A stretch of DNA of 64,000 nucleotides, taken from sequence record SRR31156797_5029. One strand, given 5' to 3'. A program made the position numbers and the translations under genes. Positions 4,095 to 30,017 of this stretch are shown in pieces (position 1 is the stretch's first letter; each line of letters starts with the position of its first letter). Below the pieces are notes generated by a model that was not told where the DNA came from, made no database searches, and was given only the letters and a program-made list of their open reading frames with translations.

Positions 4095-4976
4095 TCACAA
4101 TTCGTCTTTGAGCTGATCAACATTTGTTATGAGGGTAATTTCATCAGGAAGCTTAATGTCTTGCAATTTAAATTGCAATCCACTTACAAAAAGTTTTTTA
4201 TGGTTAAAATGTTCTACAAGTTTTTTCAGGTGCTCATCAATGTCATACGACGACAAACTGGAAGTGATAAAGGTTATCAGCCCATCTGTTTCCATGGTAT
4301 TCACAATTTTGTAAAGGTCTTCAAATGGAACCATCTGTCCAAGGTATATTACCCTGTGTCCTGCTTTCTGGATGATGTAGGAGTAAAACAGTAAACCAAT
4401 TTCATGGAGTTCGCCCTCGGGTAGGTAAAGAATATATGTTTTTCTTCTTTCAGGCTGGGTAGCAGGAAGAATCCCATCGATTGCCACAATCATCTTTTGC
4501 CTGATCAGGTTGGTGATAAAATGTTCCTGTCCCGGGTATATAGTACCAATTTGCCACAGCAATCCAATTTTTTCAAAAAATGGGATTAGCACCTGGATAA
4601 ATGTTTCCTCAAATCCGAGGTTTATGATCATATTGGTTAAATCTTTTTCAAACTTAACCTCATCCATTTCAATCATATCCACAATAAGCCCTTCAACTTT
4701 GCTATCCGTATCAAAACTCTTATTGTTTATGCTAATGATTTTTTTGCTGAGTTCCGCGTTGGGGAGGTTGGCAAGACTCGAAATTTTGAAACCGTGCCTG
4801 TTGAGGATTGAAATGTTTAACAGCTTTTTAAGGTCTTCATCAGAATAATACCTGATGTTTGTTGGTGTCCGTTCAGGTTTCACAACCTGATACCGCTTTT
4901 CCCAGATGCGCAAAGTGTGCGCCTTGATCCCGGTAAGCAGTTCTAAATCTTTAATTGTATAACTTGATGGAGGCAT
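4095..4976 (-). CDS. MerR-family regulator with cobalamin-binding domain (CarH/LitR type)
   Basis: MerR HTH (YTIKDLELLTGIKAHTLRIWEKRY...NIRYYS), W-x9-EH (WQIGTIYPGQEH) and ExHxxG (GELHEIG) B12-binding motifs. Confidence 0.9.
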   Translation of the reverse strand: MPPSSYTIKDLELLTGIKAHTLRIWEKRYQVVKPERTPTNIRYYSDEDLKKLLNISILNRHGFKISSLANLPNAELSKKIISINNKSFDTDSKVEGLIVDMIEMDEVKFEKDLTNMIINLGFEETFIQVLIPFFEKIGLLWQIGTIYPGQEHFITNLIRQKMIVAIDGILPATQPERRKTYILYLPEGELHEIGLLFYSYIIQKAGHRVIYLGQMVPFEDLYKIVNTMETDGLITFITSSLSSYDIDEHLKKLVEHFNHKKLFVSGLQFKLQDIKLPDEITLITNVDQLKDEL

Positions 4977-21985: not shown

Positions 21986-24091
21986 ATGTCCAACTCAATT
22001 TTACGCAATTCCATAGAATATTTGAAAGGTGTAGGCCCGGCACGTGCCGAGTTACTAAAGAAAGAGCTGGACATTCACACTTTCGAAGACCTGCTTTATT
22101 ATTTCCCGTTCCGGTACGTAGACCGAAGTAAGTTTTTTAAAGTGTCAGAGATTTCAAGTGAGCATACCTGGGTGCAGATCAAAGGAAGGATCACCAACCT
22201 GAAAACTGTTGGAGTAGGAAGAGGTAAACGGCTCACCGGTTTCCTTCAGGATAGTTCCGGTTCTGTTGAGCTGGTTTGGTTTCGCGGGATCTCATGGGTG
22301 GTGCAAAAAATAAAACCCAACCTCGAGTATGTGGTGTTCGGCAAGCCCACACTATTCAATGGTAAGTTTAATTTTGCGCATCCTGAATTTGAAGCTGTTG
22401 TGGATTTGGAGGTTGCCCCAGCAGCCAGCCTGCAGCCTGTTTACAACACCACAGAAAAGCTCAGGAGTAGAGGGCTGGAAAGTCGTGGTTTAGCACGTCT
22501 GACAAAATCACTGGTTGCGCAGATCAGGAATTCGATCCATGAAACTTTATCTGATGAATTGATCCACAGAATGAAATTTGTTTCACGGGAAATGGCACTG
22601 ATCAATATTCATCATCCCGAAAGTCAGGCATTATTGGATAGGTCTATTGCCCGGTTGAAGTTTGAAGAGTTGTTCTTTATCCAGTTGATGTTACTGAAGC
22701 TGAAATTTATCCGCACGAAAAAGATTAAAGGGCATGTATTTGGTGTGGTGGGTGATTATTTCAACAACTTTTATGCAAACCATTTGCCCTTTGAATTAAC
22801 CGGTGCACAAAAGTGTGTAATACGTGAAATAAGGACGGATATGGGAACCGGTGCACAAATGAACCGGCTCTTGCAGGGTGACGTGGGAAGCGGGAAAACC
22901 CTTGTTGCTCTGATGTGTATGCTTATTGCCATCGACAACGGATACCAGACGGCGTTGATGGCGCCAACAGAAATTTTGGCACAGCAACATTTTGCAACCA
23001 TCAGCAAAATGTTAAAAGGTCTTGAATTGGAAATTTATCTCCTGACCGGATCAACAAAAACCGCTGACCGTAAAATCATACATGAAAAGCTGGAAGATGG
23101 CTCCCTGAAAATCCTCATCGGGACCCATGCCCTGATCGAGAAAAAAGTAAAATTCAGGAACCTCGGATTCACGGTTATTGATGAGCAACATCGTTTTGGT
23201 GTAGCCCAGCGCGCCAGACTGTGGCAAAAAAATGTGGTGCCTCCGCATGTTTTGGTCATGACCGCCACGCCCATTCCGCGCACCCTTGCCATGACGGTAT
23301 ATGGAGATCTGGATGTTTCGGTGATTGATGAATTGCCACCGGGTCGCAAGCCGGTGCAAACCTTTCATTATTACGACAGCAAACGCCCACAGCTTTTCAA
23401 TTTCATGAAGAACCAAATTGCTGAAGGGAGGCAAATCTATGTGGTTTACCCGCTGATCAACGAATCGGAAGCCCTGGATTTAAAAGATCTGATGGATGGT
23501 TATGAAAGCATTGTCCGTTCTTTTCCTTTACCTGATTATGCGGTGAGTATTGTGCATGGACAGATGAAAACCGACCAGAAAGACTGGGAAATGCAACGGT
23601 TTGTAAAAGGCGAAACCAACATTATGGTGGCCACCACCGTAATTGAAGTGGGTGTAGATGTGCCCAATGCTTCAGTGATGGTCATCGAAAATGCTGAGCG
23701 TTTCGGGCTTTCTCAGTTGCACCAGCTGCGTGGCAGGGTAGGGCGTGGCGCTGACCAGTCATATTGTATTTTGATGTCGGGCTACAAGCTTACAACCGAT
23801 GGCAAGAAGCGACTCCAAACCATGGTTGAAACCACCGATGGTTTTAAAATTGCAGAGGTAGATATGAAGTTGCGAGGCCCCGGCGATATGCATGGAACCC
23901 AGCAAAGTGGAGTTCTCGATATGAAACTGGCAGATATCATCCGCGATGAAAAAATCCTGAAGTTTGCCCGGTCAGTGGCCATCGAGATTCTGGAAGATGA
24001 TCCCGGTTTGCAAAAGCCCGCCAACGAAAGAATAGCAGGGCGTTTGCAACAAATCAGCAAAACACGGCATGATTGGAGCCGGATTAGTTGA
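21986..24091 (+). CDS. recG: ATP-dependent DNA helicase RecG
   Basis: LQGDVGSGKT, DEQHRFG, TATPIPRT, QLHQLRGRVGRG. Confidence 0.98.
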   Translation: MSNSILRNSIEYLKGVGPARAELLKKELDIHTFEDLLYYFPFRYVDRSKFFKVSEISSEHTWVQIKGRITNLKTVGVGRGKRLTGFLQDSSGSVELVWFRGISWVVQKIKPNLEYVVFGKPTLFNGKFNFAHPEFEAVVDLEVAPAASLQPVYNTTEKLRSRGLESRGLARLTKSLVAQIRNSIHETLSDELIHRMKFVSREMALINIHHPESQALLDRSIARLKFEELFFIQLMLLKLKFIRTKKIKGHVFGVVGDYFNNFYANHLPFELTGAQKCVIREIRTDMGTGAQMNRLLQGDVGSGKTLVALMCMLIAIDNGYQTALMAPTEILAQQHFATISKMLKGLELEIYLLTGSTKTADRKIIHEKLEDGSLKILIGTHALIEKKVKFRNLGFTVIDEQHRFGVAQRARLWQKNVVPPHVLVMTATPIPRTLAMTVYGDLDVSVIDELPPGRKPVQTFHYYDSKRPQLFNFMKNQIAEGRQIYVVYPLINESEALDLKDLMDGYESIVRSFPLPDYAVSIVHGQMKTDQKDWEMQRFVKGETNIMVATTVIEVGVDVPNASVMVIENAERFGLSQLHQLRGRVGRGADQSYCILMSGYKLTTDGKKRLQTMVETTDGFKIAEVDMKLRGPGDMHGTQQSGVLDMKLADIIRDEKILKFARSVAIEILEDDPGLQKPANERIAGRLQQISKTRHDWSRIS

Positions 24092-24106
24092 TTCTAATTC
24101 AAAGAT

Positions 24107-24682
24107 TCATTCGGGATTTTCCTTTTTCCAGGCATTATACTTTATGATTACTTCAGGAATTTCCTCATAATCGTAAACTTTGTTTCTTACCTCCCTTTTA
24201 AGTACTTTATTATCAGACACCCTCGATGCAAGCTGTTTACGATATCCTGTCCGGGTAAGTTTATTAAATTTACCCGATCGGCTATCCTCAATATAATAGT
24301 TGTTAACGTCCTGCTGATCCTCAACTGTAAAAATTGCTGTGAGTTTATTTTGAGTAGCAAGTAAATTCAGTCTGCCGGTAATTAAATTCCTGGCAAACAC
24401 ATGAAAGGCAGCAGCTTCTGCATTTTCGATCTGCAAAATGGATTGATATTGAATGGTGTCGTTAATCACAAATCCCTTGATCTGCCGCGGATAATATGTT
24501 TTCTTCTTTCCTTCGGTATCTCTGAATACCACCTTTCCTTTCCCGGGTTTTGTTTTCTGGCAGACGCTTCCAAAAATAGTATCGGATTTGTTGTCGATGA
24601 GATAGCCCGTAAGGTAATCGTTTTGTGAGCTAACAGTTACTGCCGTAAGCAGAAAAATGATAATCGTGATTGTGAATTTCAT
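24107..24682 (-). CDS. Hypothetical exported protein
   Basis: Signal peptide MKFTITIIIFLLTAVTVSSQ from ATG at 24682. Confidence 0.7.
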   Translation of the reverse strand: MKFTITIIIFLLTAVTVSSQNDYLTGYLIDNKSDTIFGSVCQKTKPGKGKVVFRDTEGKKKTYYPRQIKGFVINDTIQYQSILQIENAEAAAFHVFARNLITGRLNLLATQNKLTAIFTVEDQQDVNNYYIEDSRSGKFNKLTRTGYRKQLASRVSDNKVLKREVRNKVYDYEEIPEVIIKYNAWKKENPE

Positions 24683-24836
24683 GGTGTGAAATAATGGTGT
24701 GAAATATTGGAGTTCAAAAATAGAAAACATCATTCATTTATAGTCTAAAGCTTAATTTTAAAACAATGGAAATCTTTATTTTGCTGGAACAATAAATCAA
24801 ACCACACTGCCCTCCCCCCCTTAAACGTCAATTTAT

Positions 24837-24844
24837 TACATTTG
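24837..24844 (+). promoter_or_regulatory. -7 promoter element upstream of the repeat array
   Basis: TACATTTG (TAnnTTTG), within the left direct repeat. Confidence 0.55.
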
Positions 24845-24956
24845 TACAGCGTGAGTTGAAAGTTGCTTATGAATCATTGATACGTTTTTTTCAATTGGTA
24901 AAGCAATATAATCACATTTACTTATTAGACTTTGGGATTCAATAAAAGTAGCAATG

Positions 24957-25298
24957 TCTGGTACAAAAACAGCAGTAAAATTGCATGTGGATTTTGGAAA
25001 GAAAAATAGGGGTAAACAGCGTGAATGAATTGATGAAACATCTGGAGAAACCAGACGAAATAATAGAGATAATGATGTAAATGATGGTGAAATTGATGAA
25101 ATAAGTGGTAAGCCGTCTGGAGATTCCAGACAAAGAATAGGTAATAGAAAAAGTGTTATTGTTTATTGAAATAATAACCTTGGATGATTTAGTAGGCCAT
25201 CTGGAGATTCCAGATAAAGTAGAGGTGATAATAGAGGTAATGATATAAATGAAGGTAAAACTGATGATGTAAGTAAAGAACTATCTGGAGATTCCAGA
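24957..25298. repeat. Regularly interspaced palindromic repeat array (TCTGGAGATTCCAGA)
   Basis: Exact copies at 25116, 25200 and 25284, variant TCTGGAGAAACCAGA at 25041, degenerate TCTGGT... at 24957. Periods 84, 75, 84, 84 bp. Confidence 0.9.
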
Positions 25299-25321
25299 CA
25301 ATAACAATATAAAGCTTAGAA

Positions 25322-26779
25322 ATGGAAAATTTAACTAAAGATATGTTATCGGGTATCAACAAGCTGATAATAAAATATAAAAAAATGAATAGTAATGAAC
25401 TTCGTTTTCATATTGGCGGATTTATTGTGTCTTTTTATGTTAAAAGGAAGAAAGTAATCAAAGAGCAAACTTCCTGGAATAAAATACTAACTTCAGTTTC
25501 GGATAGCCTGAATAAAGAATACGGTGGAGATGGTTATGGGGTAACAAACTTAAATTATATGCAACAGTTTTATCGTAAATACAGGAACTCATCCGAGATG
25601 ATGGACAAAGCGTTAAAACTTGATTGGAGTCACAATGTTGCATTGCTAAAAGATAAACTAAATGATGATGAAAGAAATTATTATTTAAACAGGGCTATTT
25701 CCGAAAAATGGTCTGTAAAAGAAATAGAGCGTCAAATAAAGGATGATGGTTTCGATAATTTTTTAAACGAAATAGAGGGGAACAACTATCAATTTATCAT
25801 TAAAGACTTAAAGATAGAGAACTATAAATCACTGGTAAATATTGAAATTGCAAATCCTTCGAAACTGCTTGTTTTTGCTGGTGCAAATGCAAGCGGTAAA
25901 TCAAACATATTTGAAGCAGTTGAGTTTTTAATGCATACTGCCATGACCACAGGAACAATTGCGTTTGATATTTTCGGAGGTAACGAAAATGTTGTAAATT
26001 ACAAAGCCTCAAAGCAAAATGGTCAGTTCCTTGAAATTGTTTTGGATTTATCCTTCGGAAGTAATGATCACAATATTAGTTTTGGGTTGAAATACGATAT
26101 CCAAACGAAGCAATTAGCAAGGGAGTTTACAGGGATTAAGAAATTAGATGAAAGAATAGTAAATTCTTTTTCCAGAATATTTATTGATAATCACAAAAGG
26201 GCAGAGAATAAACTAAAAACTTATAATAAACTCTGGATTGATGCTGCTAATTTGAGTAGCATTCTAAAAGTAACCCTTGAAGACGAAAAAAAGAAAACAG
26301 AGATTATTGAATGGATTCAGATATTAATTCCCGAAATTGAAAGTGTATCAGTTGAAAAGGATTTTAGTGGAAAAGAAGAATTAATAATTATTGAAAAGTC
26401 TTATCCTGACAAGCCATTTGCCGGAAATTTAATATCCGAAGGAACACATAACATAATAGCATTACTTACATTATTTTATCAAACAGATCAACCCCAGTTT
26501 GTTTGTATAGAAGAACCGGAAACTGGGTTAAACCCTGCTGTTTTAAGTGAACTCATTCCATTTTTACGTGAGATGACAGATAAATATCATCATCATATTT
26601 GGATTACAACACACTCGGCTTCTTTGGTTTCAGAACTTACTGAGGAAGAATTAATCATTGTAAACAAAAAAGAAGGGGAAACAAAAACCAACCAATGCAA
26701 AGACGGGGATTTCGAAAAAATGCGGCCAGACGAAGCATGGATGAGCAATATGCTTAAAGGAGGAGGATTACCATGGTAA
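25322..26779 (+). CDS. DUF1016 (YhcG) N-terminal domain fused to an AAA_15/AAA_21-type ABC ATPase
   Basis: Residues ~1-145: EYGGDGYGVTNLNYMQQFY...LDWSH..LL...ERNYY...EKWSVKEIERQI. Then IENYKSL, Walker A GANASGKS, signature-like ISEGT, Walker B IEEPE, H-loop TTHS. Confidence 0.85.
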   Translation: MENLTKDMLSGINKLIIKYKKMNSNELRFHIGGFIVSFYVKRKKVIKEQTSWNKILTSVSDSLNKEYGGDGYGVTNLNYMQQFYRKYRNSSEMMDKALKLDWSHNVALLKDKLNDDERNYYLNRAISEKWSVKEIERQIKDDGFDNFLNEIEGNNYQFIIKDLKIENYKSLVNIEIANPSKLLVFAGANASGKSNIFEAVEFLMHTAMTTGTIAFDIFGGNENVVNYKASKQNGQFLEIVLDLSFGSNDHNISFGLKYDIQTKQLAREFTGIKKLDERIVNSFSRIFIDNHKRAENKLKTYNKLWIDAANLSSILKVTLEDEKKKTEIIEWIQILIPEIESVSVEKDFSGKEELIIIEKSYPDKPFAGNLISEGTHNIIALLTLFYQTDQPQFVCIEEPETGLNPAVLSELIPFLREMTDKYHHHIWITTHSASLVSELTEEELIIVNKKEGETKTNQCKDGDFEKMRPDEAWMSNMLKGGGLPW

Positions 26780-27360
26780 AAGTCGGTTTCATTGTTGAAG
26801 GTACTTCGGACTTCATAATTTTGAAATCTGACAGGTTTCAGAGTTTACTTAATTATAAACTTGAAATTGAGACCGATGAGTCTTTGATAAATATTGCACA
26901 TGGTCGGTCAGGGTTAAAAAAGAATTTTGTGTCACTCGTTAGAAATCTGCAAAAACAAAATGTCGATTATATTTTTACACTTGTTGATCAGGATGATAAA
27001 GAAGAAGACAAAAAGAATAGAGGATACCGGCCTCCCGACTGTCCGATAGTTGTTGTGAACGAAATTCAAAATTTTCGGGATAATAGGAATTATATTTTCC
27101 AAAAAAATTCATTTGTAATTATGACCAGAGAAATGGAAGCATGGTTTTTGGCTGATGTTGATCTGAATTTAAAGTTTGATGGTGACCCTGAAGAAGTTTT
27201 AAACCCATCCGATATTGTTGGTGAGCAGTTAAATACATCAAGTCATGTGAAAATTGCAAATAAGCTTAAAAATAGATTTTCATTAGTCAGAGCTGCTGAA
27301 AACTCAAAAAGCGCAAAAAGGTTTCTTGAAAAACTTAAAGAAATTGCCGTTGGAAACTAA
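26773..27360 (+). CDS. TOPRIM-like DUF4276-type protein, putative nuclease effector
   Basis: FIVEGTSD, VDQD, REMEAWFLAD, NSKSAKRFL motifs. Overlaps the ATPase stop by 7 bp (ATGGTAA). Confidence 0.75.
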   Translation: MVKVGFIVEGTSDFIILKSDRFQSLLNYKLEIETDESLINIAHGRSGLKKNFVSLVRNLQKQNVDYIFTLVDQDDKEEDKKNRGYRPPDCPIVVVNEIQNFRDNRNYIFQKNSFVIMTREMEAWFLADVDLNLKFDGDPEEVLNPSDIVGEQLNTSSHVKIANKLKNRFSLVRAAENSKSAKRFLEKLKEIAVGN

Positions 27361-27443
27361 ACCAAATTTTTTTCCCGACTTTCAATCCTCTGATACCGAT
27401 CACAACCCACAACTGTTAACTCAAAACTCACAACTGAACTCAA

Positions 27444-27485
27444 AACCAATAACGAATAACCAATAACCAATAACGAATAACCAAT
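27444..27485. repeat. Heptamer tandem repeat (AAC[C/G]AAT)6
   Basis: (AACCAAT AACGAAT AACCAAT)x2, preceded by AACTCAA/AACTCAC units. Confidence 0.85.
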
Positions 27486-27513
27486 TACAATCCACCCCTA
27501 CAGTTCAATTTAT

Positions 27514-27521
27514 TACATTTG
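27514..27521 (+). promoter_or_regulatory. pheT -7 promoter element
   Basis: TACATTTG, 30 nt before the pheT ATG. Confidence 0.7.
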
Positions 27522-27551
27522 CGGACTTAATTTCAAAATCATAGAAAAATC

Positions 27552-30017
27552 ATGAAGATTTCATATAACTGGCTTAAGGAACATGTTGATATAGATCTCG
27601 ATGCTGAAAAGGTTTCGGAGATTTTAACGGATACCGGACTGGAAGTTGAAGGCCTTGAAAAAATTGAAACCATCAAGGGAGGCCTGAAGGGCGTGGTTGT
27701 TGGTGAAGTGAAGACCTGCGAAAAGCATCCTGATGCCGATAAATTGAGCGTTACAACGGTTGATGTTGGCTTTGGGAAAGTATTGCCTGTGGTATGCGGG
27801 GCACCTAATGTTGCTGCCGGGCAAAAAGTAGTGGTAGCAATTGTTGGAACAGTACTTTATGCCGGTGAAAAATCCTTTGAAATTAAAAAAGCGAAAATAC
27901 GTGGCCAGGTTTCTGAAGGCATGATTTGTGCGGAAGATGAGCTCGGGCTCGGTGATTCCCATGATGGAATAATGGTTTTGCCCGAAGATGCTGAAATAGG
28001 CATGGCTGCCAAAGATTATTTCCAGATTGAGGAAGATCACGTTTTTGAAATCGGGCTTACACCAAACCGGAATGATGCCATGTCGCACGTTGGTGTTGCA
28101 CGCGATTTGGTAGCCGCTTTGAATTTCCACAATCCACAGGCTGATCCTCACAAGGTTTTCACGGCCTGTACGGATAGTTTTGAAATAAAAAATAAAAATT
28201 TTCCCATCGAAGTAGTGGTCGAAGATAAGGATGCATGTCCCCGTTATTCAGGAGTTACGATCACGAACGTAAAAGTTCAGGAATCTCCTGACTGGTTAAA
28301 GAACAGGCTTTTATCAATCGGGCTGCGACCCATAAATAATCTGGTCGATATCAGCAATTTCATCCTGCATGAAACCGGCCATCCAACGCACTTTTTTGAT
28401 GCGGATAAAATCAAGGGTAAAAAGATCATCGTTAAGAAGCTACCAAAAGGGTCAAAGTTTTTATGCCTTGACGAGGTTGAAAGAGAACTTTCAGGTGAAG
28501 ACCTGATGATTTGTGATGGTGAGGAAAACGGGATGTGTATTGCCGGTGTATTTGGCGGCCTTAATTCAGGTGTTACTGAAACTACCAAAACCCTGTTTAT
28601 CGAGAGTGCTTATTTCGATCCGAAAACCATCCGTAAAACGGCTAAGTATCATGCGCTGAACACCGATTCTTCTTTCCGTTTTGAGCGGGGTGCCGATCCA
28701 AATGCAACATTGTATGTGATGCGCAGAGCTGCGTTACTTGTACAGGAACTTGCCGGCGGTGAGGTTTCCTCTGATGTTCAGGATGTGTATCCGGACCCGA
28801 TAAACCCATGGAAGGTTGAAGTAAAATATGCCAACGTCGACAGACTGATCGGTAAATCAATTCCGCGTGACCGCATTCATGATATTATCATAAATCTGGG
28901 AATGGAAATACTCGAAGATCATGAAGATATACTGGTTGTTGAAGTCCCGACATTCAAAGCCGATGTTACCCGTGAGGCTGATATCATCGAAGAGATTCTG
29001 AGGATTTATGGTTATAACAATGTTGAGTTTCCGAATCAGGTCAGGGCATCTTTGTCATACATTGAAAAACCAGATCGAGAAGCGGTGCAGGATTTGGTTT
29101 CCGACTTTTTAAGCCACAATGGCTTTGCTGAAGTCATGAATAATTCACTAACCAAAGCCTCCTATGCCGATAAGTTTGGTTTTATCAATAAAGATCAGGA
29201 TGTTAAGATCTTTAATCCGTTGAGCAGCGACCTGGGTGTGATGCGCCAGACTTTACTCACTTCCGGTTTGGAAAGCATCATTTATAATGTTAATCATAAA
29301 AATGCCGACTTACGTTTTTATGAGTTTGGGAAAACCTATGGCCAACTTACAACTGATACAAGTAAGGATGTTTTGGACAGGTTTGAGGAAACCATGCATT
29401 TATCACTGTTTGTTACAGGAAACCTAAACCTTGAAAGCTGGCATGATGATCTGAAACAGGGTGATGTATTCTTCCTTAAATCACAGGTTTACGCCATACT
29501 GAAGAAACTGAAAATTGATGACCGCATGTTTCAGGGTCAAAAAATTTCCGATGAAATTTTTACCTCAGGCATGATGCTTACCTGGAATGGGAAAGAAGTA
29601 GTTGTTTACGGACAACTCAAAGCAACTCTCCTGAGTGAATTTGAAATTGAGCAGCCGGTATATTGGGCCGATTTTAACTGGGATCTGATTTTGGAAATAC
29701 TGAAAGGGCATAAACTTTCATATAAACCAGTGTCAAAATTCCCGGAGGTACGCCGCGACCTTGCCTTGCTTGTAGATAGTACAGTAGAGTTTGATGAACT
29801 GAAAAAACTCGCTCTTGGTGCGGAAAAAAAGCTGCTTAAATCAGTAAACCTGTTTGATGTTTATGAAGGTGAAAAAATTGAAAAAGGTAAGAAATCTTAT
29901 GCCCTGAGCTTCATCCTGCAGGACGATACCAAAACCCTTACTGACAAGATAATTGACAAAACCATGAAAAAGCTTGCCAACACATATCAGTATAAAATTG
30001 GCGCAACCTTGAGGTAA
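27552..30017 (+). CDS. pheT: Phenylalanine-tRNA ligase beta subunit
   Basis: MKISYNWLKE, VCGAPNV, LTPNR, RFERG, SKFPEVRRDLA, C-terminal GATLR. Confidence 0.98.
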   Translation: MKISYNWLKEHVDIDLDAEKVSEILTDTGLEVEGLEKIETIKGGLKGVVVGEVKTCEKHPDADKLSVTTVDVGFGKVLPVVCGAPNVAAGQKVVVAIVGTVLYAGEKSFEIKKAKIRGQVSEGMICAEDELGLGDSHDGIMVLPEDAEIGMAAKDYFQIEEDHVFEIGLTPNRNDAMSHVGVARDLVAALNFHNPQADPHKVFTACTDSFEIKNKNFPIEVVVEDKDACPRYSGVTITNVKVQESPDWLKNRLLSIGLRPINNLVDISNFILHETGHPTHFFDADKIKGKKIIVKKLPKGSKFLCLDEVERELSGEDLMICDGEENGMCIAGVFGGLNSGVTETTKTLFIESAYFDPKTIRKTAKYHALNTDSSFRFERGADPNATLYVMRRAALLVQELAGGEVSSDVQDVYPDPINPWKVEVKYANVDRLIGKSIPRDRIHDIIINLGMEILEDHEDILVVEVPTFKADVTREADIIEEILRIYGYNNVEFPNQVRASLSYIEKPDREAVQDLVSDFLSHNGFAEVMNNSLTKASYADKFGFINKDQDVKIFNPLSSDLGVMRQTLLTSGLESIIYNVNHKNADLRFYEFGKTYGQLTTDTSKDVLDRFEETMHLSLFVTGNLNLESWHDDLKQGDVFFLKSQVYAILKKLKIDDRMFQGQKISDEIFTSGMMLTWNGKEVVVYGQLKATLLSEFEIEQPVYWADFNWDLILEILKGHKLSYKPVSKFPEVRRDLALLVDSTVEFDELKKLALGAEKKLLKSVNLFDVYEGEKIEKGKKSYALSFILQDDTKTLTDKIIDKTMKKLANTYQYKIGATLR

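Follow-up and report, generated by a model that had tools for sequence, protein, structure and literature searches.

A phased array of short palindromes upstream of DUF1016_N-ATPase genes, a candidate sopC-like docking element

ParB-type DNA-binding domains bind 13-16-bp palindromes as dimers, and the sopC locus of the F plasmid consists of tandem 43-bp repeats, each with a 16-bp inverted repeat that is bound by SopB. Small palindromes are also known as repetitive extragenic palindromes and bacterial interspersed mosaic elements (REP/BIME), which are species-specific, extragenic and present in hundreds of copies, and ToxI/ToxN type III toxin-antitoxin systems combine near-identical antitoxin repeats with a ToxN-type endoribonuclease. 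In T4-type phages, mobile regulatory PeSL cassettes, a sigma-70 promoter with a terminator stem-loop, have been described, of which there are many per genome (PMC2839356; see also PMC4122927). HEC-01, Hma-embedded candidate 1, gave no protection in an E. coli assay according to the available part of its preprint (bioRxiv 10.1101/2024.01.29.577857). Here, we describe an array of short palindromes at positions 24957..25298 of sequence record SRR31156797_5029, a 64,000-nucleotide stretch of DNA hereafter called the window; the array lies directly 5' of a HEC-01-like gene pair whose first member carries an N-terminal DUF1016_N domain. The motif string was not found in the literature that we searched. 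The array is probably a previously undescribed protein-docking signal, rather than a product of chance or a dead gene, and we tentatively favor, at somewhat less than an even chance, its being a sopC-like set of docking or operator sites for the DUF1016_N domain of the downstream protein.

The repeated motif is a 15-17-bp palindrome, (G)TCTGGA-GAT-TCCAGA(C); the 21-mer form of the double-stranded palindrome is YYGTCTGGAGATTCCAGACRA. On the + strand of the window, exact copies of TCTGGAGATTCCAGA stand at 25116..25130, 25200..25214 and 25284..25298, and a further copy at 25041..25055, TCTGGAGAAACCAGA, departs from it by two mismatches; the start-to-start distances of the four are 75, 84 and 84 nt. 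With up to three mismatches allowed, the window holds nine matches, reverse-strand self-matches of the palindrome included, whereas shuffles average 1.92 and none of 100 reaches nine. Of the hairpin array with 84/75/84/84 periods that an earlier note had drawn from the letters alone, the part with the last three periods is thereby upheld. As RNA, the four hairpins would have 5-7 bp each and folding energies of -5.4 to -10.1 kcal/mol: copy 1 has a 5-bp stem with a 5-nt loop (-5.4 kcal/mol), copy 2 has a flanking G..C pair that lengthens the stem to 7 bp (-10.1 kcal/mol), copy 3 has a flanking A..T pair that likewise lengthens the stem (-7.8 kcal/mol), and copy 4, which ends 23 nt before the ATG, comes to -6.5 kcal/mol. 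The same note had the base pair flanking the stem covary; this holds at 25116 (G..C) and 25200 (A..T), but the copies at 25041 and 25284 have an A..C mismatch there.

The spacers are C-poor, as the note had said. Spacer 1 (25056..25115) has 60 nt and 3 C; spacer 2 (25131..25199) has 69 nt and 5 C, is the most divergent and contains a small A/T hairpin of its own; spacer 3 (25215..25283) has 69 nt and 2 C and is the best conserved between loci, at 65-90% identity with no indels. The homology claimed for spacers 1 and 3 is likewise borne out, as they fall within an 89-nt direct repeat, 168 nt apart and 78% identical. Overall, the units of the array are 45-57% identical, and Tandem Repeats Finder left the 84-nt period unreported because the units are less than 70% alike. 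A degenerate fifth copy had also been proposed at 24957..24971 (+), where TCTGGTACAAAAACA keeps TCTGG alone, in 84-nt phase with the copy at 25041. At one fixed position, TCTGG has a chance of ~4e-4. The unit beginning there matches the others at 28/75 to 36/84 of its positions, where the others reach 34/75 to 48/84 among themselves, and it lies outside the stretch homologous to related loci, which begins at 25004-25025. It is a weak candidate, possibly a fully decayed copy.

A scan of a metagenome collection for two exact motif copies 55-85 nt apart returned 16 contigs with 2-5 copies each; because two exact copies were demanded, the invariance of the motif among them is overstated. The period is 84 nt in 10 of the 16 (L002, L003, L004, L005, L007, L008, L010, L011, L013 and L015), 96 nt in four (L006, L009, L014 and L017), 42 nt in L012, a contig of 65% G+C, and 73 nt in L016. 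Within L012, all frames of positions 1-400 are open through composition alone. A protein-led search of reference genomes gave one relative, L001, from a Lentimicrobiaceae metagenome-assembled genome, 81% identical and with the array present in four variant copies: TCTGGAGAAACCAGA, TCTGGTGAAGCCAGA and, twice, TCTGGTGAAACCAGA. The TCTGGAGAAACCAGA variant also marks the homologous first unit in L001, L004 and L007. Throughout the 5.7-Mb genome that holds L001 (G001), the loose pattern occurs four times, all four in the array, and the motif pair is in none of 400 other genomes sampled from the phylum. The palindrome is therefore a rare single-locus element, and a genome-wide, REP-like repeat is rejected.

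Across the arrays that we aligned (window, L004, L007, L010 and L002), the motif is intact at 15 of 15 letters in every aligned copy, while spacer identity ranges over 0.49-0.96, much like the third-codon-position identity of 0.56-0.93 in the adjoining ATPase gene. Spacers 2 and 3 show zero indels among the window, L007, L010 and L002, at identities down to 0.49. With the motif letters kept and the spacers drifting without indels, the motif letters and the spacer length are therefore selected and most spacer letters are not. The G+C-rich L012 keeps the A/T-rich motif letters between G/C-rich spacers, and the loop variants change the would-be residue while the stem letters stay; judged from these comparisons of sequence, the constraint on the motif acts on nucleotides, not on amino acids. 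We further counted stem pairs over 68 distinct copies, for which the search pattern itself had fixed the inner five pairs. The 6-3-6 core is extended to 7-3-7 in 58 of these. Pair 6 is AU in 57, UA in 3, UG in 1 and unpaired in 7, and pair 7 is GC in 43, AU in 6, GU in 6, UA in 3 and unpaired in 10; the covariation score is 0.125 as against 0.086 in shuffles, a value reached by none of 500 shuffles. The sixth pair has turned from A-T into T-A in L001.

The array always occupies the space between two genes that share its orientation; 10-11 nt separate its start from the upstream stop codon, and 23-28 nt its end from the next start codon. Of the 18 loci examined (the window, L001 and the 16 metagenome contigs), 10 have it directly 5' of a DUF1016_N gene that runs the same way. 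In the window, this gene (25322..26779, +) encodes a 485-aa DUF1016_N and ABC ATPase protein resembling HEC-01A (PADLOC 1.3e-74; Pfam AAA_21 5.2e-19, AAA_15), of which residues 1-155 (25322..25786; Pfam E 8.9e-23) are the DUF1016_N domain that we propose as the palindrome reader. With a 7-nt overlap, there follows at 26773..27360 (+) the gene for a 195-aa DUF4276/TOPRIM partner resembling HEC-01B (PADLOC 1.6e-20), whose Pfam match to DUF4276, at 7.3e-06, is under Pfam's cut-off. The DUF1016_N-ATPase/DUF4276 pair stands downstream of the array in the window, L001, L002, L004, L006, L007, L010, L011 and L017, and in L014 a DUF1016_N homolog is followed by a DUF7487/TnsA-like PD-(D/E)xK nuclease. 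Other downstream genes are AbiEi/AbiEii in L008 and unrelated or opposite-strand open reading frames (ORFs) in L005, L009, L013 and L016. L003 and L015 are the same locus as L002 with the ATPase-TOPRIM pair deleted; ~120 nt from the start of the ATPase gene are left there, along with two perfect copies of the motif.

The upstream neighbor varies. It is a DUF3024 gene by Pfam, with its stop 10-11 nt before the first copy, in L002, L003, L004, L010 and L013, and is assigned as such by an identical C-terminal translation in L011 and L015; an Hma-type helicase ends there with its NOV_C part in L008, L009 and L017, according to Pfam, and in L006 and L014, according to a conserved C-terminal peptide. 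We rejected DUF3024 as the owner of the array, as six of 201 phylum genomes have DUF3024 and the palindrome is downstream in none of the six. Upstream of two distant ATPase paralogs that lack DUF1016_N, no array was found. One such paralog, 43% identical and followed by a 209-aa ORF, lies on a second contig of G001 (L047), with no array upstream of it. The DUF1016_N-ATPase family is small, at 38 clusters, and 388 candidate stretches in viral contigs contained no ATPase relative. Among 23 fetched family proteins, four (P0014, P0024, P0028 and P0030) open with the translated hairpin ('HLDIPD', 'MKPDK'), so that more loci carry at least the last copy. The association of the array with DUF1016_N, first suggested by the earlier note, has thus gained comparative support from 10 loci, two effector types and, as set out below, best fold matches of the ParB type; binding itself is a prediction.

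To ask what DUF1016_N resembles, we modeled residues 1-155 with AlphaFold on a 29-row alignment. The model is all-helical, with a pLDDT (predicted local distance difference test) score of 91.6 and a predicted template modeling (pTM) score of 0.84. Aligned by VIA-align to 48,161 representative chains, its rank 1 match is a ParB DNA-binding domain on parS (Z 9.0, 119 aligned, root mean square deviation 4.8) and its rank 2 match is Spo0J (Z 8.2, 108 aligned, root mean square deviation 3.8); the KorB DNA-binding domain on its operator reaches Z 6.4. In Foldseek, DNA-binding domains of Spo0J, Noc or ParB take six of the first 10 places, at template modeling scores of 0.37-0.51 and E values of 0.3-2, and Pfam HTH_ParB comes up, below threshold, in three of four N-domains. 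A sequence search of the PDB with the N-domain gave one chance-level row. The modeled structure is thus suggestive of a ParB-like fold for DUF1016_N, and as the ParB-type domains that it matches bind palindromes as dimers, we place double-stranded DNA first as the ligand.

Taken together, a model for the array can be outlined. The palindrome would be the cognate site of the DUF1016_N domain in an ABC ATPase that acts with a TOPRIM partner in a HEC-01-type pair. An ATPase dimer would use its two DUF1016_N domains to read the two half-sites, one apiece, on double-stranded DNA, as modeled on ParB, SopB and KorB at parS, sopC and OB, and the three or four sites between promoter and start codon would form a cis docking and operator platform that holds the complex at its own locus and throttles read-through into a potentially toxic operon. 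That the domain binds, that its ligand is DNA rather than RNA and that binding represses are points that we infer by analogy. A likely promoter feeding the array is the left copy (24829..24844, +) of CAATTTATTACATTTG, a direct repeat of 16 nt found on both sides of the inserted cassette as a whole. Within this copy stands TACATTTG, the sole + strand TAnnTTTG between 24600 and 25400 and a putative Bacteroidota-type -7 box. With this box upstream of it, the array probably lies within a leader of some 470 nt by our estimate, the transcript being predicted to begin a few bases past 24844, and because it stands between the pheT-derived promoter-like box and the ATG, a bound protein would block read-through. 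In favor of these docking sites, we count the selection of the motif at the nucleotide level, the fixed spacer length, the co-occurrence with DUF1016_N and the confinement to a single locus. Two of five features of ParB-type site arrays were found, namely a 13-17-bp palindrome and fixed-spacing tandem copies beside the gene of the candidate reader.

Several observations weigh against docking by DUF1016_N. On the protein side, Raf1 (Z 7.0 and 6.6) appears among the ParB and KorB rows of VIA-align, which itself cautions that helical models can reach Z ~13 by arrangement alone, a level that 9.0 and 8.2 fall below; Foldseek gave no match to the DUF1016_N model at E <= 0.001; and Pfam HTH_ParB, found in three of four N-domains at E 0.045-0.17, is under its curated cut-off. 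On the genomic side, perfect arrays occur with no DUF1016_N gene after them, with four copies in L013, three in L009, two in L008 and two each in L003 and L015, and DUF1016_N was found in none of five palindrome-bearing phage records, of which one alone is rated complete. On the DNA side, the changes at pairs 6 and 7 (A-T to T-A; G-C to A-T or T-A) keep complementarity and not half-site identity, a pattern that, as far as the pair counts go, is more in keeping with a folded hairpin than with a half-site that is read. The proposal that 84 bp, as 8 helical turns, sets the sites on one face is borne out in part: the 96, 72, 42, 73 and 75 nt of the relatives are mostly within ~0.15 turn of an integer, but the 48- and 120-nt spacings are out of helical phase, and nearly all spacings are multiples of 12, matching a sub-repeat of the spacers. 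Moreover, the period-3 and 12-nt composition, the C-depletion and the open 96-nt frame, all described below, are left unexplained by docking sites.

The main rival, possible and yet clearly less probable than docking on DNA, is that the array acts as RNA. The 6-7-bp triloop hairpins of a leader or intercistronic region would be bound by a protein, possibly DUF1016_N itself, or would protect and process mRNA ends, and they may tune the expression of the ATPase-TOPRIM operon or serve as a readout of translation. The placement of the array argues for this, as it fills an intergenic gap and is always co-oriented with the flanking genes; starting 10-11 nt past a stop and ending 23-28 nt before a start, it leaves no room for a promoter. 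No promoter-like box was seen inside the window array, and a sigma-70 promoter scan gave 12 promoter-like sites, with 13.8 in shuffles. The complementarity kept by changes at pairs 6 and 7, with a covariation that no shuffle reaches, is also in its favor, as are the composition of the untranslated, C-poor 84-nt arrays and the open frame of the 96-nt arrays, both of which may avoid Rho termination.

Set against an RNA role, wobble pairs give no strand signal: pair 7 is G.T in 4 and A.C in 6 of 55 bacterial and L025 copies, and it is on the other strand that A.C would be a wobble. No covariation is seen in the inner stem across a family with ATPase identities down to 61%, and an unstructured RNA spacer does not account for an exact length of 69 nt. 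The whole + strand of the array region folds no better as RNA than shuffles do (z -1.5), and Rfam returned chance-level rows only over 24000-27600 at E <= 10, the best match over the array being RAGATH-12 with 16.5 bits, where the gathering score is 75. A terminator scan gave a single terminator-like call, a weak one, at the last copy and on the minus strand.

Phage copies of the palindrome bear on both sides of this question. The 17-mer GTCTGGAGATTCCAGAC is in 14 viral contigs, with 7 of these matches inside tRNA gene arrays. Of 14 hairpins in those arrays, 10 are within 3-13 nt of the end of a tRNA, for which the chance fraction is 0.02, a placement that would suit an RNA-level role. The phage loops are GAT, AAT, TAT, ATC, TTA or AAA and occur in both orientations; loops that are unconserved and even inverted count against a read RNA hairpin, and a free palindrome center is as expected if a dimer reads two half-sites. 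Among individual loci, L028, L029, L031, L032 and L037 are from large AT-rich phages and have the palindrome at this distance of 3-13 nt from the ends of tRNA genes, its loop varying and at times inverted. In L025 (4474-4574), a perfect 22-bp hairpin (-49.5 kcal/mol, z -9.6) is enclosed by two copies of the motif that are 86 nt apart; it lies just upstream of a phage tRNA-Glu and downstream of a helix-turn-helix gene. One phage copy, in L035 at ~4750-4784 on the minus strand, has a run of T's after it and could be taken for an intrinsic terminator.

Less likely than either is that the palindrome is a recombination or homing signal at the edges of exchangeable cassettes, with the array as the scar or landing pad of repeated exchange, comparable to the PeSL cassettes of T4-type phages or to the target of a homing endonuclease. 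L008 and L017 share Hma genes, a NOV_C helicase at 75.5% and a DUF1156 methylase at 82.8%, between which the cassette is AbiEi/AbiEii in L008 and HEC-01 in L017; the array opens each, right after the helicase stop, as would suit a swap of cassettes. In both, the 3' edge of the cassette falls exactly at the methylase start. Homology also breaks at array edges, on the left in the window (25004-25025) and on the right in L013, ~19 nt past the last copy. Two palindromes flank a 157-aa membrane ORF between tRNA-Leu and tRNA-Trp in the phage loci L029 and L037, and L031, in which this ORF is absent, has one palindrome. Whole phage records, one of them a 328-kb phage rated complete, have 1-2 sites each, all in the tRNA array, and HNH-type genes are nearby in L026. 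The phage-tRNA and Hma-border facts together speak, at what we consider a low probability, for a role as junction or target.

The cassette in the window is itself an insertion flanked by a direct repeat, a further point for exchange. CAATTTATTACATTTG has two exact copies in the window, the right one at 27506..27521 (+), and none of 100 shuffles gives two; ~24/31 of the surrounding bases also match. The right copy stands at the right edge of the cassette, 30 nt before the start of pheT, so that the 2.7-kb cassette looks, from these letters, to have been inserted into the pheT promoter region with duplication of the promoter. Yet CAATTTATTACATTTG differs in sequence from the palindrome, and no palindrome was seen at the 3' end of the cassette in the window, L002 or L017. 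The loci examined yielded neither a recombinase nor a transposase. A center of 3 bp is short beside the crossover regions known from tyrosine recombinase sites, and a scar leaves both the strict 84/96-nt phasing and the 3-5 tandem copies unexplained.

A bolder and still less probable proposal is that the palindrome is a phage-borne mark on DNA (or RNA) that is read by DUF1016_N, a phased array of which the defense cassette carries in cis. The cis array would then be a built-in reference or brake on which the ATPase-TOPRIM complex is docked and silent; incoming phage copies would compete for the complex or recruit it to phage DNA or, conversely, the phage copies might serve as decoys. If true, this would make the cassette a module of innate immunity that is specific for a sequence and has a copy of its own target in cis, with a logic between those of restriction enzymes, ParB-parS and CRISPR.

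The composition of the spacers calls for a further explanation, in which the array is the functionless, decaying remnant of a gene for a protein with 28-aa (or 32-aa) repeats. The earlier note had raised a decayed repeat-protein gene as its own alternative, and we consider it improbable, although part of it stands. Whatever the array type, the composition of the spacers has a strong period of 3 that keeps step with the motif; in the frame TCT-GGA-GAT-TCC-AGA, position 3 is T in 52-67% and G+C in <15%, and the array periods are multiples of 3 in all but three cases. The motif frame of the four 96-nt arrays has 1 stop, against 8.0 in phase-preserving shuffles (p ~0.002), and in L006 and L017 the open frame ends in TTATGA, overlapping the ATPase start codon; by these signs of sequence, the 96-nt arrays are probably translated. 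An open frame through the repeats is present in the 96-nt relatives L006, L014 and L017 only. The window type is different: 84-nt arrays have 7 stops where 7.3 are expected, and their substitutions are commonest at codon position 2 and rarest at the T-rich position 3, the reverse of coding DNA. All three + frames of the window array are broken, with 3, 5 and 26 stops, in agreement with what the note had seen in the two that it translated. The minus-strand ORFs 24939-25133 and 25189-25362 were rejected as genes, as no minus frame is consistently open across loci; they stay open because the minus strand is G-poor.

Even in the 96-nt type, the sequence evidence against a functional protein product is strong. 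The L006 array ORF has no relative but itself in 5.8 billion clustered or 1.84 billion HMMER-scanned representative proteins, and the array frames of L006 and L017, whose ATPases are 75% identical, align at the motif only. Nor would 15 of 15 kept motif letters and an exact spacer length be expected of a dead gene. We infer that the C-poor 84-nt spacers (5.1-8.7% C, with 10.5-15.6% in the 96-nt spacers and 13-14% in the ATPase gene) and the open 96-nt frame are both ways to carry transcription over a long gap without Rho termination. All spacers also have a 12-nt sub-period (window 25056-25283; L002, L006, L007, L009, L014 and L017), with lag-12 autocorrelations of 0.46, 0.48 and 0.40 and T at phase 2 of 12 in 90, 73 and 78%, and the periods 48, 72, 84, 96, 120, 192 and 204 are multiples of 12.

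Least probable of all, at a small fraction of the likelihood of docking sites, is the processed, CRISPR-like unit of the earlier note, or its type III toxin-antitoxin-like counterpart, in which units would be cut from a precursor RNA to act as guides or to supply the ATPase-TOPRIM pair with an RNA antitoxin: a tandem small-hairpin array does lie directly 5' of defense genes, and the solitary phage copies recall the RNA anti-CRISPRs of phages in the available part of their description (PMC10651486), but the spacers are homologous within the array and between loci and have therefore arisen by duplication, not acquisition, the units are only 45-57% identical, blastn of the 296-nt array, in line with what the note had proposed for the spacers, found no match in 50,697 phage or 72,556 plasmid records, and Pfam and PADLOC scans of the neighbors placed no cas or endoribonuclease toxin family beside the arrays.

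The cassette that carries the array has a G+C content of 32% in the ATPase gene, in a window of 40%, and is homologous to other cassettes from ~25004 to 27347. Around it lie gldN, recG, a divergent 208-aa ORF with no family and pheT, from which we conclude that the window is from a Bacteroidota chromosome. Four DNA sequencing runs, one of them possibly the source, contain the stretch or a part of it, and no RNA run was listed as containing it. At 27400-27485, past the DUF4276 stop and before the right CAATTTATTACATTTG copy, the cassette's 3' tail holds tandem repeats of period 21 and period 7 (AACCAAT x6). At the start of the divergent 208-aa ORF, a 13-nt sequence, ATGGTGTGAAATA, is repeated 2.3 times in tandem (24681-24710), and the true start of this ORF may be the ATG at 24683 rather than that at 24733.

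DUF1016 proteins and HEC-01-type pairs are common passengers of restriction and Hma systems, and a palindrome that travels with DUF1016_N is a concrete candidate ligand that is cheap to test. The array may also explain the inactivity of HEC-01, if that pair was assayed out of its native context, and the motif at Hma cassette borders and in phage tRNA arrays offers a handle on the embedding and exchange of small defense cassettes.

By the tests applied, the element is not a CRISPR array, a type III toxin-antitoxin locus, a REP or a member of an Rfam family, although it resembles several of these in part. Like REP/BIME, it comprises small intercistronic palindromes within operons; unlike them, its motif is identical across unrelated contigs of 30-65% GC and occupies one locus per genome. 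Like a type III toxin-antitoxin locus, it is a tandem repeat directly upstream of a defense or toxin gene on the same strand, but its 84-nt units are about half identical and the downstream gene encodes an ABC ATPase, not an endoribonuclease. With CRISPR arrays and the solitary repeat units of phages (Racr), as far as the available text on the latter goes (PMC10651486), it shares constant-period hairpin repeats beside defense genes and single phage copies; it differs in a conserved core of 15-22 nt only, in interrelated spacers with no phage or plasmid match and in the lack of cas genes. Within what the available PeSL sections cover, PeSLs are alike in being conserved stem-loops at the borders of non-essential ORFs, with differences between relatives that map to the motifs; here, however, no promoter part was seen, a T run follows the phage copy in L035 only, phage records have 1-2 sites each, and the tandem arrays are phased, as PeSLs are not.

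The gene pair itself is of the HEC-01 kind, an ABC ATPase with a TOPRIM (DUF4276) partner at the PADLOC values given above (1.3e-74 and 1.6e-20), and in L017 it sits between an Hma-type helicase and a DUF1156 methylase. The window pair, by contrast, is outside Hma, between a lipoprotein-like ORF and pheT, and the available part of the HEC-01 preprint mentions neither an N-terminal DUF1016_N domain nor an upstream repeat array (bioRxiv 10.1101/2024.01.29.577857). No ParA partner and no ParB CTPase/ParBc domain was found among the neighbors by Pfam, which gave DUF1016_N, ABC-ATPase families and DUF4276 only. The arrays of sopC, parS and KorB operators come closest: they too are short tandem palindromes at fixed spacing by a gene with a ParB-HTH-like domain (here a predicted one), with an unconserved palindrome center and as a single-locus element. 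Compared with sopC, the period is 84 or 96 nt rather than 43, and the spacers carry a 12-nt sub-repeat; compared with sopC and parS alike, the putative reader is fused to an ABC ATPase, is paired with a TOPRIM protein and is encoded in a chromosomal defense cassette.

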